Source: Candidatus Woesearchaeota archaeon
GTDB lineage: Archaea; Nanobdellota; Nanobdellia; Woesearchaeales; GW2011-AR4
DNA: 30,203 nucleotides
Direction of reading: 5' to 3'
NCBI GenBank assembly: GCA_016181305.1
Contig: JACOZN010000021.1
Coordinates: forward strand, 1 to 30,203
In this document: piece by piece, positions 9,140 through 15,416 of the stretch
Layout: every line of letters begins with the position of its first letter
Numbering within the stretch: position 1 is the first letter of the stretch
Translations under genes and position numbers: made by a program
The notes under the pieces: generated by a model
Told to the model about the DNA's origin: nothing
Seen by the model: only the letters and a program-made list of their open reading frames with translations
Database searches by the model: none

Positions 9140-9402
9140 TTTATTTGTTTTATTTTATTTGTTTTTATAGTATATTTATTCAATCGAATCCAACAGCAAA
9201 AGCAGGTCTCCTCTTTCGCTACTGCTTTCAGAGGAAGCTCTCGTTTGGTTTATTTTTTATGTATTTTATCAATAACATTTCAAAAATTTGTAATAAGTTA
9301 GGCACTATGAATTTATAAGCTTTTTGGTGGCTTTTAAGAATTATTTTCCTATATAAAATGATATTTTAGACGAACTTTGAAAAATATGGGAAATATCTTT
9401 TT

Positions 9403-12142: not shown

Positions 12143-12273
12143 AAACTTTTTATATTTGATAATAAGTTTTAAGCGCATATGTGATTAAAGCTGAAAGCGA
12201 GGCAACAGACTATTTTTCCTTTTTAGATAATGTTTTTATACTCGCTTGAATAATCCATTTTAAAGAGGTGATA

Positions 12274-12834
12274 TTGATCAGCTTTTTTGGCATAGTTTCA
12301 TCGACGTTCTTGGCTATATGGCACTTGTTCCTGCACTGGCTGAGCATATTCGCAGCCCCGATTGAAGAGCCCGAGATGTTCTGGATAATCATTCCTATAT
12401 GGATCAACTGGTTTTTCACTGAGTTTTACCAGGAGAAGAAAGGCACGAGCTTCGGCAACGCCATAAGCAACGGCGCGATTGCAATACTTGCAAGCATTGA
12501 CTGGGCAAGGTACATGCATCGCCTCATTGCAGACGGCATCATAACTAAATTAACTTTTGGAGTCTTTCTCAAATTTTTTACCGCATTTGCAGTTTTTGCA
12601 TACGGGATTTATGTCATTATTGCAGGCATAAAGACAAAAAAGATTGTTTTTTTCATCGGCAAAATAAGGTGGGTTACTTACATCCTTGTCATGTTCACCC
12701 CGATTGTATACAACGTCATAAGAATGGACATCTTTACTTTAATGGCAATACTTGCCTTTTTCCCGCTTTACTACGGCATTATCGAAATTTTTGACAGAAT
12801 AACACCTGAGCCCAGGACTTACCAGCATTCATAG
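12274..12834 (+). CDS. Polytopic membrane protein of unknown function
   Basis: About six hydrophobic segments; SD GAGGTGA at 12265-12271 points to TTG at 12274. Confidence 0.8.
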   Translation: MISFFGIVSSTFLAIWHLFLHWLSIFAAPIEEPEMFWIIIPIWINWFFTEFYQEKKGTSFGNAISNGAIAILASIDWARYMHRLIADGIITKLTFGVFLKFFTAFAVFAYGIYVIIAGIKTKKIVFFIGKIRWVTYILVMFTPIVYNVIRMDIFTLMAILAFFPLYYGIIEIFDRITPEPRTYQHS

Positions 12835-12850
12835 GCTGTCATAGGCTGTC
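12831..12850. repeat. Perfect 10-bp tandem duplication ATAGGCTGTC x2 at the convergent stop codons of the membrane gene and the recombinase
   Basis: Read directly. Confidence 0.9.
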
Positions 12851-13654
12851 CAGGGGGCTTTTCACTTTCTTAAGCTGCTGCGTTGAAACCTTTGTGTAAA
12901 TCTGCGTTGTTGACAGGTCAGCATGCCCGAGCAGTTCCTGGATTACCCGTATGTCTGTGCCTGCCTCGAGCAAATGTGTTGCAAAGCTGCTTCTTAGCGC
13001 ATGGCAGAAAACCCTTTTTTTTATGCCGGCTTTTTTTGCGGCTTCCTTGACAACCTTCTGGGCCTGCCTTGCTGTAATTGGGCGGTTTTTCACTGAAAAA
13101 ATATAGGAGCTTTCATCTCTTTTTGCCTTGATGTAATCAGTCAAATGCTGCATCAGTGTATCCGATAAAATGATATACCTTTCCTTGTTGCCCTTGCCGT
13201 GCTTGATTTTGCCGATTTTTTCAGCCAAGTCAAGATCATCAAGCTTTAATGAAACACATTCGCTCACCCTTAATCCTGAGGAGTACATGAACTCAATCAG
13301 TAATTTGTGCTTTGGGTTTTTGACAGCTTCAAGCATTTTTTTTATCTCTTGTTTTGTCAGCACTGTCGGAAGCTTCTTCTCTGATTTTGGGGCCTTGACT
13401 GCATTAAAGGCTGGATTCCGCAAGATTTCATTGTAGAAGAACTTGAGCGAGCTTAAGGCAAGATTTACGCTCCTTGGCTTGAATTTCCGCTCTGACATCA
13501 GGTAAGCAATGTAGCGCTTTGCATCATTCTCATCAACGCTTTGAGGCTCTTTCTTAACAAAATCAAGGAATTTCCTGTTGTGGTAAATATAAGAGTCAAC
13601 GGTTCGCTTGCTGAAACCCCTTATTTTCAGTTCTGTTTCGAGTTTGTCAAGCAT
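12839..13654 (-). CDS. xerA: Xer-family tyrosine recombinase (XerA-like)
   Basis: Intact catalytic residues: GLRVSE (R), GKGNKER (K), HALRSSFATH (HxxR), LLGH, TTQIYT (Y). SAM-like N-terminus and LPTVLT motif. No IntI-specific insertion before HxxR. Confidence 0.9.
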   Translation of the reverse strand: MLDKLETELKIRGFSKRTVDSYIYHNRKFLDFVKKEPQSVDENDAKRYIAYLMSERKFKPRSVNLALSSLKFFYNEILRNPAFNAVKAPKSEKKLPTVLTKQEIKKMLEAVKNPKHKLLIEFMYSSGLRVSECVSLKLDDLDLAEKIGKIKHGKGNKERYIILSDTLMQHLTDYIKAKRDESSYIFSVKNRPITARQAQKVVKEAAKKAGIKKRVFCHALRSSFATHLLEAGTDIRVIQELLGHADLSTTQIYTKVSTQQLKKVKSPLDSL

Positions 13655-13699
13655 TTTTCACCTTTTTCATTAAAACTTTGACAGAACTAGTATAAAAAA

Positions 13700-13725
13700 C
13701 TTCGCCCAATCCGTATTAGGCGAAC
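13700..13725. repeat. dif-like palindrome CTTCGCCCAAT-CCGT-ATTAGGCGAAC
   Basis: Inverted arms with AAT-N4-ATTA core, the same geometry as E. coli dif (CATAAT-GTAT-ATTATG); lies 46 bp upstream of the xer ATG. Confidence 0.6.
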
Positions 13726-13776
13726 ATTTGCGGACACTTTTTATAATTTCACTCATTAACATTCGTATTAACCAAC

Positions 13777-14313
13777 GAAATAATGGCTTTGATACGCATT
13801 AACTGATGTTTAAGCCTACTGCTAAGCTAAAAATGTAGCATTTTTTAATGCATTTGAAGTTTTTGGTGAAAATGCTCCATTAACTAAAAAAACAAAATCA
13901 ATCCTTCCACCCACCAAACCCCCACCCTCCCGCCCTATGACAATGTTTTTATATTTTGAAATTTTTGAAAGTAATAGATGAAATTTTGGAAAAAGTTGAA
14001 ATATTGGCAGAAAGGTGGTGTTATAGGTTTGATTATTGGATTAGTTAAAATACCATTTTTTGTCTTAATGGGAGAGAGTATGCCTTCTATTTTTGTCTAT
14101 TACGCTGGACTGATACCAGATCAGATGTTATGCAATTTTTTAAATTTAGGCTCTGGGGAAAGTTGTGGTTGGTTTGCCTTGATTTATGGTTTCATTTATA
14201 ATCCAATTTTTTTTGGGATGATAGGGATGATTCTAGGTTTATGTTATTCCTTAATTAAAAAAAAGAGTTCGTCTAATGCCCATAACTAATTTTACAATCA
14301 AAGCCATTATTTC
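13777..14313. repeat. Perfect 17-bp inverted repeat GAAATAATGGCTTTGAT (13777-13793) / ATCAAAGCCATTATTTC (14297-14313) flanking cargo gene 1
   Basis: Read directly. An outer inverted repeat also exists: 13724-13737 / 14382-14395 (14 bp) and 13713-13723 / 14436-14446 (11 bp). Confidence 0.95.
13978..14289 (+). CDS. Cargo gene 1: small AT-rich membrane protein
   Basis: 103 aa with 2-3 hydrophobic helices; TATA-like TTTTTATA upstream; 3' end overlaps half-site GTTCGTCTAAT (14267-14277). Confidence 0.75.
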   Translation: MKFWKKLKYWQKGGVIGLIIGLVKIPFFVLMGESMPSIFVYYAGLIPDQMLCNFLNLGSGESCGWFALIYGFIYNPIFFGMIGMILGLCYSLIKKKSSSNAHN

Positions 14314-14504
14314 TCCTTTTGTCTTCGCCTGTACTTTCGTAAAGCGAACTTTATTTCATAAAGTACAACAAAAGCATTTTTGTGTCCGCAAATGTCTAAT
14401 TTTTCTGCGGAAAAATTGGTGGGCATAAAGCCCACTCGCCTAATACTCGTTTCGTGGCAAAATCGAATTCCTTGCGTCATTCAGATTTATGGAAAACTAT
14501 CGTA

Positions 14505-14974
14505 AAATCGGGTTTGAGAACGCATTAACTAAAACAAATTCAATCCAGCCCCCGTCCAATCCCCCCCGCCACCCACCCCAACGTGAAAACGAGGATTTAA
14601 ATAAAAGAAGTATTCTAAAGAAAATAATGGAAATGATTGGAGAACATAAGTATAGAATTTCTTTTGTTTTGATAACTTTTGTATTTGTAGCTGTTATGGC
14701 ATATTTGCTTATTACCTTTAACTTAAACTCAACCTTCAAACAAATAATCAGCAATCCTATAAATTGGGTTATTATAATTATTATAGTTTATATATACAAA
14801 GATATTAAGCCTATAGTAAAACAGATATGGACTCAAACAGAGGTTAGAGATGATATAGAAAAAGAAACAAAAAATAAGTTGCAATTGGAAAATGAGAAGT
14901 TGAGACTTGAAATTGAAATATTAAAACAAAAAAGTCCGTCTAATAGCCCACGATGAAACACTCAAACCCGATTT
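14505..14974. repeat. Perfect 14-bp inverted repeat AAATCGGGTTTGAG (14505-14518) / CTCAAACCCGATTT (14961-14974) flanking cargo gene 2
   Basis: Read directly. Confidence 0.95.
14627..14956 (+). CDS. Cargo gene 2: AT-rich two-TM protein with C-terminal coiled coil
   Basis: Start moved from 14489 to ATG 14627 because 14489-14626 is the repeated non-coding leader, with TATA-like TTTAAATA at 14596. 3' end overlaps half-site GTCCGTCTAAT (14934-14944). Confidence 0.7.
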   Translation: MEMIGEHKYRISFVLITFVFVAVMAYLLITFNLNSTFKQIISNPINWVIIIIIVYIYKDIKPIVKQIWTQTEVRDDIEKETKNKLQLENEKLRLEIEILKQKSPSNSPR

Positions 14975-15263
14975 CACTCTTTGAACCTTCGCCTAATCCC
15001 TATGGATTAAGCAAACTTTTTAATAAAAAGTCCAGTTCAAACAAGATACTCGCCCAGCAAAGTTTAAAACCTTTCAGGCGTATAATACTCGTTTGGCAAA
15101 CTTTTCTGCGGAAAAGTCAAGCCATTGTGGGTTGCCTCAATGGTCGCCAAACTTTGGGCATTAGATGAACTTTTTTCCCAGAATTATCGACTTTGCCCAG
15201 ATTTTATGCCCGGAGGCAGGGCTTTTTGTGCAAAACACCCAAATATTTTGATTTTTGTTGTTT

Positions 15264-15416
15264 TCACCTGTGATACTTAGGATTCACTCCAATCGCTTTC
15301 ATCTCCTCTGCGCCGCACTCGTTGCACTTGTACAAGTCATACTTTGAATTGCCGCTCTGAATTATTCCTCTCTTCATCATGTTCTCGTTGCATTTCCTGC
15401 ATTTTACATCTGCCAT
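15264..15416 (-). CDS. 50-aa zinc-ribbon protein (missed by the ORF track)
   Basis: MADVKCRKCNENMMKRGIIQSGNSKYDLYKCNECGAEEMKAIGVNPKYHR*, with two CxxC pairs and a TATA-like element upstream. Confidence 0.8.
   Translation of the reverse strand: MADVKCRKCNENMMKRGIIQSGNSKYDLYKCNECGAEEMKAIGVNPKYHR

Follow-up and report, generated by a model that had tools for sequence, protein, structure and literature searches.

A xerA-adjacent dif site as a probable platform for small gene cassettes in a Woesearchaeota archaeon

Integrons are the textbook platform for gene capture, and to our knowledge few routes of gene exchange are known for ultra-small archaea. Integrons are thought to have arisen once, from a Xer-like ancestor that gained a special domain for handling folded DNA (PMC4792948), and the archaeal integrons of Ghaly et al. 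2022 are built from IntI and attC (PMC9668308). Here we describe a locus in a 30,203-nt stretch of DNA from a Candidatus Woesearchaeota archaeon (contig JACOZN010000021.1, contig C12 in our numbering; "the window" below), in which the gene for a XerA-type tyrosine recombinase adjoins a dif-like site that contains an array of small gene cassettes. The genome is a 1.07-Mb assembly of 22 contigs that is 78% complete. We consider it probable that this xerA/dif module doubles as a platform for small non-autonomous gene cassettes, arrayed between xerA and a zinc-ribbon gene. An unmodified XerA/dif module thereby appears to do a job comparable to that of an integron in ultra-small archaea.

In its layout the locus is a functional analogue of integrons, sedentary chromosomal ones included, with the recombinase gene divergent from the primary insertion site and a co-oriented array of non-autonomous cassettes that carry one or a few genes. 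As in integrons, each cassette ends in a structured imperfect palindrome, the crossover falls at the edge of the site with the last part of the site supplied by the neighbouring unit, the cassette sites are alike within a lineage around unrelated cargo, and toxin-antitoxin cargo occurs in relatives. Exchange of one strand with a folded partner, established for integrons (PMC4792948), may be a further shared trait. The locus differs from integrons in its XerA-type enzyme without the IntI insertion, in the canonical dif that serves as primary site and in its cores, which read TAA/TTA; a preliminary description of this DNA had rightly noted that they were not AAC/GTT. Integron attC sites consist of R''/L''-L'/R' boxes with AAC/GTT cores and measure 57–141 nt, whereas the elements found here are 230–340 nt long and are complemented by an 80–220-nt part at the cassette 5′ end, so that the whole cassette site reaches ~450–560 nt and includes several dif-like subsites. 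Unlike in integrons, the cargo has promoter-like sequences of its own and lies on either strand.

CTXphi and the other integrative mobile elements exploiting Xer (IMEX) offer a second parallel, since they use the host Xer/dif machinery without a recombinase of their own, leave hybrid sites and form tandem arrays at dif (PMC3442271, PMC5357621). In CTXphi, attP is single-stranded and folded: its two inverted dif-like sequences pair with each other on either side of a mismatched centre, and one strand pair is exchanged (PMC3442271); the same geometry was predicted here, by modelling of four independent backbones, for two subsites of the cassette (sites B and C, described below). IMEX are bacterial phages, plasmids and islands with replication or transfer genes that rely on XerC/XerD, whereas the present units are tiny cassettes next to an archaeal single-recombinase XerA. 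Acinetobacter pdif modules are likewise small and recombinase-less, bounded by Xer sites, shuffled between contexts and commonly loaded with toxin-antitoxin genes (PMC6449649, PMC13141974, PMC7399989). They alternate in orientation, are mostly plasmid-borne and have neither a linked xer gene nor a long structured element, in contrast to the sites described here, which are chromosomal, adjoin xerA and lie within a conserved backbone. The resemblance to pdif modules that had been proposed for this DNA was not borne out, as its sites are co-oriented. Finally, in XerS/difSL and in the archaeal xerA/dif modules, such as that of Sulfolobus with dif close to xerA, the recombinase gene adjoins an 11-6-11-type site, as it does here (PMC5357621, PMC2958812). 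These single-recombinase modules are described only for chromosome dimer resolution, whereas here a cassette array occupies the site, an arrangement for which we found no published description in the searchable literature. Archaeal Xer/dif systems are characterised by one full site per chromosome, placed in the region where replication terminates. If the platform reading is true, the module would represent a second, independent solution to cassette capture and a natural model of how integrons may have begun; it would also account for a hot spot at which assemblies break and strains differ time and again in DPANN genomes, and could serve as a compact system for site-specific insertion that needs a single protein.

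The core of the module comprises three features:

12839..13654, minus strand: xerA-type tyrosine recombinase gene, 271 aa, identified by Pfam, NCBIfam and alignment.
13686..13698, strand unspecified: A/T-rich TATA-like box, read from the sequence, abutting the dif-like site.
13699..13726, plus strand: primary dif-like site, with arms 13699–13709 and 13716–13726 and the centre TCCGTA at 13710–13715.

A Pfam search identified PF00589 (2.5e-47) and SAM_4 (PF13495) in the recombinase. The protein passed the NCBIfam archaeal XerA equivalog NF040815 (268.2 bits against a cut-off of 220) and failed the integron-integrase model TIGR02249 (232.7 bits, under the cut-off of 265). It could be aligned end to end with P. 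abyssi XerA (4a8e), and the catalytic R-K-H-R-H-Y motifs, belonging to the R-K-H-R-H/W-Y set of Xer-type enzymes, were visible. Residues 177–195 (19 aa) stand opposite residues 183–244 (62 aa) of Vibrio IntI4, and the IntI-specific insertion is absent. The preliminary description had called the enzyme Xer-type and lacking this insertion; the equivalog score and the full-length XerA alignment uphold the former, and the 19 residues facing 62 in IntI4 the latter. An exact-protein look-up returned no record for the window XerA. The TATA-like box, whose position is kept in at least 13 same-genus genomes, is probably the xerA promoter and may be active in both directions.

The dif-like site lies ~45 nt upstream of the xerA start codon, touching the TATA-like box, and follows the archaeal dif design of two 11-nt inverted arms around a 6-nt centre (PMC8371274, PMC5357621). 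It is a hybrid, composed of the chromosomal left arm ACTTCGCCCAA, the centre TCCGTA and the right arm TTAGGCGAACA of the first cassette. The site scored 46.8 bits with a full-site matrix derived from 11 same-genus sites, compared to 19.4 bits for the second-best match of the genome, and 13699–13726 is the only canonical 11-6-11 full site in the 78%-complete assembly. A site is kept at this place beside xerA in at least 13 genomes of the genus and also in a different family (G040), and in one relative (G009) it forms a perfect 12-6-12 palindrome. A palindromic full-site pattern with two mismatches was noisy in the relatives and gave higher counts in the control; we used only matches with at most one mismatch, all of which adjoin xerA. 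The "att-like site" that had been placed beside the promoter therefore stands as a site, corrected to a canonical dif-type 11-6-11 sequence; because this site accompanies an enzyme passing the XerA equivalog, the platform would be the xerA/dif module itself. Seven of the 25 half-sites scoring at least 13 bits in the whole 1.07-Mb genome fell inside 13697–15173, where our own estimate of the chance expectation is ~0.03. Shuffled genomes contained 28–38 such half-sites, which identifies the genome-wide background as chance level. Elsewhere in the window, a lone and very strong right-arm half-site of 20.7 bits (TTAGACGAACTTT, plus strand) is located at 9366–9378, in intergenic DNA next to the gene for RNA polymerase subunit L; it stands without a partner arm and could be due to chance or be a relic.

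Comparison with a related genome (G001) identified the DNA from 13716 to 15160 as an insertion in the dif-like site, because the intact site of that genome equals the left arm and centre of the window joined to window sequence from 15161 on. Two features mark the far side of the insertion:

15161..15173, plus strand: chromosomal right arm of dif, TTAGATGAACTTT, 1445 bp from the left arm owing to the insertion.
15264..15416, minus strand: zinc-ribbon gene, 50 aa, assigned by genus-wide synteny, the distal edge of the variable region.

The gene order of the genus consists of two coiled-coil/helix-turn-helix (HTH) genes, sometimes a membrane protein gene, xerA, a gap, the zinc-ribbon gene and usually DUF192 with the genes beyond. 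We measured the gap between xerA and the zinc-ribbon gene in seven genomes with conserved flanks. It spanned 160 bp in G001, 204 bp in G018, 205 bp in G007 and 240 bp in G010, with one intact site in each, and reached 1602 bp in G006, 1609 bp in the window and 7483 bp in G016. Contigs ended inside this region in more than half of the genus loci, and those of G015 and G022 both terminated at the same nucleotide, ...TATTA, within the site. Such breaks are the expected behaviour of an assembler where populations branch. The variable gene content next to xer that the preliminary description had anticipated in relatives was thus found across the genus, as well as between near-identical strains.

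The strain-level evidence came from sister-species contigs (L042–L049), ~89% identical to the window, which were retrieved via a zinc-ribbon protein look-up and originate from several aquifer metagenomes. One of them (L043) is empty, with a 168-bp gap, whereas another (L042) is longer by exactly 1174 bp, and the flanks of the two are identical at 100.000% over 8261 bp and at 99.94% over 5221 bp. The L042 insert begins with the right arm TTATACGAAC... and ends with a left-arm-like sequence followed by CTTTGGGCA, directly before the chromosomal right arm TTAGATGAAC. Empty and occupied alleles are present side by side in public aquifer metagenomes. The inserted cassette, with a 184-aa cargo, recurred (99.4% identical) in two left and two right contexts: its left neighbour was either the chromosomal centre or site C of another cassette (L061, and similarly L066), and its right neighbour either the chromosomal right arm or a different cassette (L057). 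The border was identical in every context, the centre being followed by TTA. More generally, cassette borders fell exactly between the centre, of 6 nt in the chromosome or 9 nt in a cassette, and the right arm. A motif describing this junction had 17 matches in 12 of the 43 genus genomes compared to a single match for the reversed control; the matches were in the xerA contig wherever the assembly permits the check, and all junction sites shared one orientation relative to xerA. Taken together, the array is inserted in dif, the locus is polymorphic, ranging from empty to 7.5 kb, the borders are precise, and one cassette occurs in several contexts. As a separate observation, the right arm of the 184-aa cassette reads TTATACG in some samples (L042, L047) and TTAGGCG in others (L044, L045), and only TTAGGCG matches site B; crossovers inside the arm or arm swapping may account for the difference.

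Across the relatives, cassettes are ~0.7–1.8 kb long and contain one or two small genes, and no recombinase, replication or structural genes were found in them. Each has a conserved backbone around its cargo. In the backbone 5′ region (~80–220 nt), the right arm is accompanied by two repeat arms specific to the cassette and, in many cases, by a C-rich element. The conserved blocks of the backbone 3′ element E (230–340 nt) are a half-site overlapping the cargo end, site A with arms 7–10 nt apart, site B with the 6-nt centre TACTCG, several hairpins and the terminal site C with the 9-nt centre CTTTGGGCA. The backbones of the first window cassette, the first G016 cassette and the L042 cassette were 87–94% identical around unrelated cargos. 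Between the window and G016, the 5′ region (13655–13935) was 94% identical and the first 3′ element (14257–14461) 87%, and the cargo between them unrelated. The cargos held by this shared backbone encode 103 aa in the window, 110 aa in G016 (BLASTP E = 42 between both) and 184 aa on the opposite strand in L042. Cargo of the G016 array includes ParE with its antitoxin, HicA/HicB, a DnaJ-domain protein and a metallophosphoesterase; no Pfam family was found for the two window cargos (c1 and c2), nor for the 184-aa and 133-aa cargos.

The C-rich element is present twice in the window, and its relatives occur in cassettes of G004, G011, G012, G013 and G024:

13878..13935, plus strand: C-rich backbone element, with a second copy at 14523–14583; the opposite strand is G-quadruplex-like, with at least four G-runs.

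The preliminary description had given each gene a promoter-like leader of its own. The conserved C-rich leader belongs to the backbone and not to the cargo, because it is present with opposite-strand cargo and in gene-less mini-cassettes. Such mini-cassettes were noticed in L066 (1880–2140) and in L061, where a complete 3′ element and the terminal site come immediately after the C-rich element. A backbone can therefore exist without cargo.

These features bear on the view that unrelated plasmids or viruses, as classical IMEX, integrated into an ordinary xerA/dif module and then decayed, the repeats being leftover hybrid sites and no cassette system existing at all. Bacterial elements that borrow Xer are firmly known to integrate at dif (PMC5357621, PMC3442271), hybrid dif sites delimit the array, and ORFs (open reading frames) resembling by eye an HNH endonuclease and an IS200-type transposase lie upstream of xerA in G013. 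We nevertheless judge such decay quite improbable. It does not readily yield units of 0.7–1.8 kb that are limited to one or two small genes and lack genes for replication or structure, different cargos set in one 87–94% conserved backbone, gene-less units, or nested cassette-specific repeats that recur in ~21 units.

The array of the window consists of the following features:

13716..14488, plus strand: cassette 1, truncated at its 3′ end, with R' arm, backbone 5′ region, cargo c1 and element E1.
13978..14289, plus strand: cargo c1, an ORF for a 103-aa hydrophobic orphan; no Pfam family.
14257..14488, plus strand: element E1, the 3′ cassette element, without tail and terminal site C by comparison with the complete L042 homologue; its parts are a half-site (14264–14276), the right arm of repeat b, site A (14320–14352), the right arm of repeat a, hairpins and site B (14433–14460).
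14489..15160, plus strand: cassette 2, truncated at its 5′ end, with the left arm of repeat b (14502–14518), the C-rich element, cargo c2 and a complete E2.
14627..14956, plus strand: cargo c2, 109 aa from an internal ATG, the longest ORF starting at 14489; no Pfam family.
14926..15160, plus strand: element E2, complete, with a half-site (14931–14943), the right arm of repeat b (14961–14977), site A (14984–15019, 10-nt spacer), site B (15075–15102, centre TACTCG) and site C, formed by a left arm (15139–15151) and CTTTGGGCA (15152–15160).

The internal start of c2 was chosen because the C-rich backbone element occupies 14523–14583. The protein is an orphan in which two hydrophobic helices precede a coiled-coil tail; both c1 and c2 read as small membrane-protein ORFs on the plus strand, and an exact-protein look-up for c1 returned no record. 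E1 and E2 are homologous, each ~230 nt long and 3′ of a cargo ORF, in line with the size and the branched shape ascribed to them earlier. Their spans 14320–14352 and 14984–15019 had been candidates for cassette borders and were rejected, being conserved internal subsites (site A) of the 3′ element with 7–10-nt spacers. E1 ends where its L042 homologue runs ~110 nt further to site C, and the unit that follows has no R' arm and no left arm of repeat a. Because E1 stops short of site C and the next unit is without a right arm, the window array is best read as two cassettes fused by deletion of their shared junction, with only the outer borders 13716 and 15160 intact. The repeat-embedded gene array of the preliminary description is accordingly retained with its ORFs and elements, and is amended to two fused cassettes. 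An nhmmer search of the genome with the element family found only E1, E2 and one weak partial match beside a second xer gene, and BLAST of the region against its own genome gave chance-level matches only. Together with the half-site and full-site scans, these searches bear out the expectation that the repeats are tied to xer and undispersed. Rfam returned only a tRNA at the gathering threshold, and two chance-level matches (E = 0.2–0.7) within the array.

Homologous or illegitimate recombination and tandem duplication among local repeats, with no site-specific mobility, could produce paralogous units at ~642-nt spacing such as those of the window, and the deleted internal junction looks like the outcome of illegitimate or homologous recombination. 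As an account of the locus, it is very improbable: borders coincide exactly with the boundary of dif centre and right arm in independent cases, empty and occupied alleles have 100% identical flanks, and one cassette is joined to different neighbours at the same nucleotide.

Each cassette is also bracketed by inverted repeats of its own, which in the first window cassette are the following:

13724..13737, plus strand: left arm of inverted repeat a, 14/14 complementary to its partner at 14382–14395.
13777..13793, plus strand: left arm of inverted repeat b, 17/17 complementary to its partner at 14297–14313.

The window contains three long-range exact inverted repeats (14–17 nt) compared to none in shuffles, and the G016 array contains 12 compared to 0.6. 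In all, ~21 different cassette-specific perfect inverted repeats of 13–18 nt were found as nested pairs at the a and b positions. Helix a begins within the right arm and helix b lies ~50–60 nt further in, their partners being at a fixed block of the E element of the same cassette. The two helix-b pairs of the window occupy homologous positions and differ at 6 of 17 positions, all of which are compensated. In a matrix of own against other partners, the longest complementary run with the own partner was 14–17 nt in seven of nine cassettes and 9–10 nt in two G016 cassettes, compared to mostly 7–11 nt in unrelated pairs, with two cross-matches of 13 and 15 nt. The variable dinucleotide in the left arm of site B equals the cassette's own right arm in eight of ten cases, and the right arm of the next unit in one of eight. 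The own-partner complementarity and this match of site B indicated that the pairing partners reside within one cassette, a pattern as would be expected if the functional form were an excised circle, in which E and the 5′ region would be contiguous.

Folding of single-stranded DNA gave z = −6.15 for E2 and z = −3.2 for E1. Together with the half-site cluster, the 46.8-bit site against 19.4 bits for the runner-up and the three inverted repeats against none in shuffles, these values sustain the earlier contention that independent repeat types argue against chance. The circular-junction DNA of four independent backbones was predicted to fold into one architecture, with z = −12 to −19. In this predicted fold, helix b lies on the outside, site A branches off as a hairpin of its own, and helix a continues into the right arm paired with the left arm of site B; a small bubble of facing centres follows, and then the inner left end of site C paired with the right arm of site B. 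The modelled circle is similar in shape to attP of CTXphi, a forked hairpin, and to the folded attC. Pairing of the first half-site of the element (block 1) with the cassette's own right arm in the circle was dropped from the main model, since it crosses helices a and b.

Xer-mediated insertion might instead use ordinary double-stranded sites, with the elements and repeats influencing the cargo transcripts (their processing, stability or translation) or providing the recombinase with additional binding sites. Helices a and b nest equally well around the cargo in the integrated linear form, each element contains about seven arm-like sequences that are possible accessory binding sites, and rightward transcription across the array could start from the TATA-like box at 13690. 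In spite of these points we regard this alternative as unlikely. The ~300 paired positions are without G-U type pairs, which is unusual for RNA helices; with a centre of 9 nt in the cassette site, its arms are not aligned as a duplex substrate would require; site B agrees with the right arm of its own cassette, which is what pairing within an excised circle predicts; and the same backbone occurs with cargo on either strand.

Returning to the platform reading, cassettes of ~0.7–1.8 kb, made up of cargo and conserved backbone, would be inserted into and lost from the dif-like site upstream of xerA, with XerA as the presumed catalyst, and successive insertions would build the co-oriented array that extends to the zinc-ribbon gene. 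The chromosomal centre (6 nt, variable between species) would remain with the left arm and the cassette centre (9 nt, conserved) with the left-arm-like end of the cassette, which places the crossover at the border of centre and right arm, because each centre stays with its own left side. A classical two-step exchange over a common overlap is impossible, since the partner centres share neither sequence nor length. The simplest alternative, by analogy, would be exchange of a single pair of strands, on the right-arm side, followed by replication that resolves the junction. One-strand-pair exchange with replication is established for the integration of CTXphi (PMC3442271) and for integrons (PMC4792948). 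The cassette substrate would be single-stranded and folded: once the cassette is excised as a circle, its 3′ element and 5′ region would combine into a single extended, branched hairpin. In this hairpin the internal site B would pair with the terminal site C and with the right arm of the same cassette, while the centres stay open as a bubble. The joint of a circle or of tandem copies would read ...CTTTGGGCA followed by the same cassette's own TTA..CGAACATTT. On integration the hairpin would be split, and this would account for the covarying inverted repeats that flank each cassette and are specific to it. This complete scheme, with a housekeeping XerA as cassette integrase, an integron analogue independent of IntI, a ~500-nt folded single-stranded backbone as dif mimic and one-strand exchange, is offered tentatively, as a possibility short of an even chance.

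A further question is which recombinase moves the cassettes, as three PF00589 genes are present in the genome: the window xerA, a paralogue on contig C5 and a distant 410-aa recombinase on contig C19. The C5 paralogue has 260 aa, is 39% identical and scores 211 bits against the XerA cut-off of 220, and its surroundings form a locus of its own:

C5:54914-59400: second Xer locus (L010 covers part).

The site of this paralogue, composed of the left arm AAACTGCGTTTAA, the centre TAGTTG and then TTA..., is conserved, and the contigs of G004 and G015 end right after its centre. Beyond the C5 site lie an RHH/PIN (RHH, ribbon-helix-helix) toxin-antitoxin pair, a 780-aa gene and a weak sequence resembling the tail of element E (C5:59284-59379), and the locus may be a second cassette platform. 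The C5 paralogue or the 410-aa C19 enzyme might thus move the window cassettes, XerA sharing the site or merely adjoining it; the number of PF00589 genes speaks for this, as do the similar arms of the C5 paralogue, its own variable locus and its weak E-tail-like element. We find this improbable, however, because the array occupies the site directly upstream of the window gene, which is the better match to XerA (268 compared to 211 bits, cut-off 220), a closed genome (G039) shows this Xer type only, and the site of the C5 paralogue differs in left arm and centre. Of the window gene and the C5 paralogue, the array's enzyme would by these scores be the better XerA candidate.

Several observations weigh against the platform reading or its folded form. 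The window array has no internal junction and may no longer be separable, the genome has the second Xer paralogue with an adjacent site, cargo and contig breaks of its own, and the uniqueness of the dif-like site holds solely for the assembled 78% of the genome. A scan of the metagenome contigs did not recover the circular junction predicted for the 184-aa cassette, and a looser junction pattern detected one more array contig (L066) there. The inverted repeats are all perfect and sharp-edged, with flanks free of wobble bias, so that a copying origin fits as well as selection for folding, and either strand may be the one that folds. Counts of G-T and A-C mismatches around the helices (34 and 39) were uninformative as a strand test, because the helices are perfect and end abruptly. 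The folded model is also not unique, as the integrated element alone can fold with its first half-site paired with the centre and the next right arm, and this block-1 pairing is incompatible with helices a and b.

Three observations concern the neighbourhood of xerA. A gene for a 188-aa membrane protein, at 12268–12834 of the window between the HTH gene and xerA, is variably present in the genus and is absent from G011, G017, G022, G020, G013, G016, G010 and G018. Upstream of xerA in G013 (locus L033, G013:C4:1-3248), ORFs resemble by eye an HNH endonuclease, a PIN/antitoxin pair and an IS200/IS605-type transposase. In G009 (locus L029, G009:C94:1-2435), xerA is reversed relative to the zinc-ribbon gene, which its 3′ end faces, and DUF192 is missing, by which arrangement the xerA/dif segment is seen to be inverted or rearranged.

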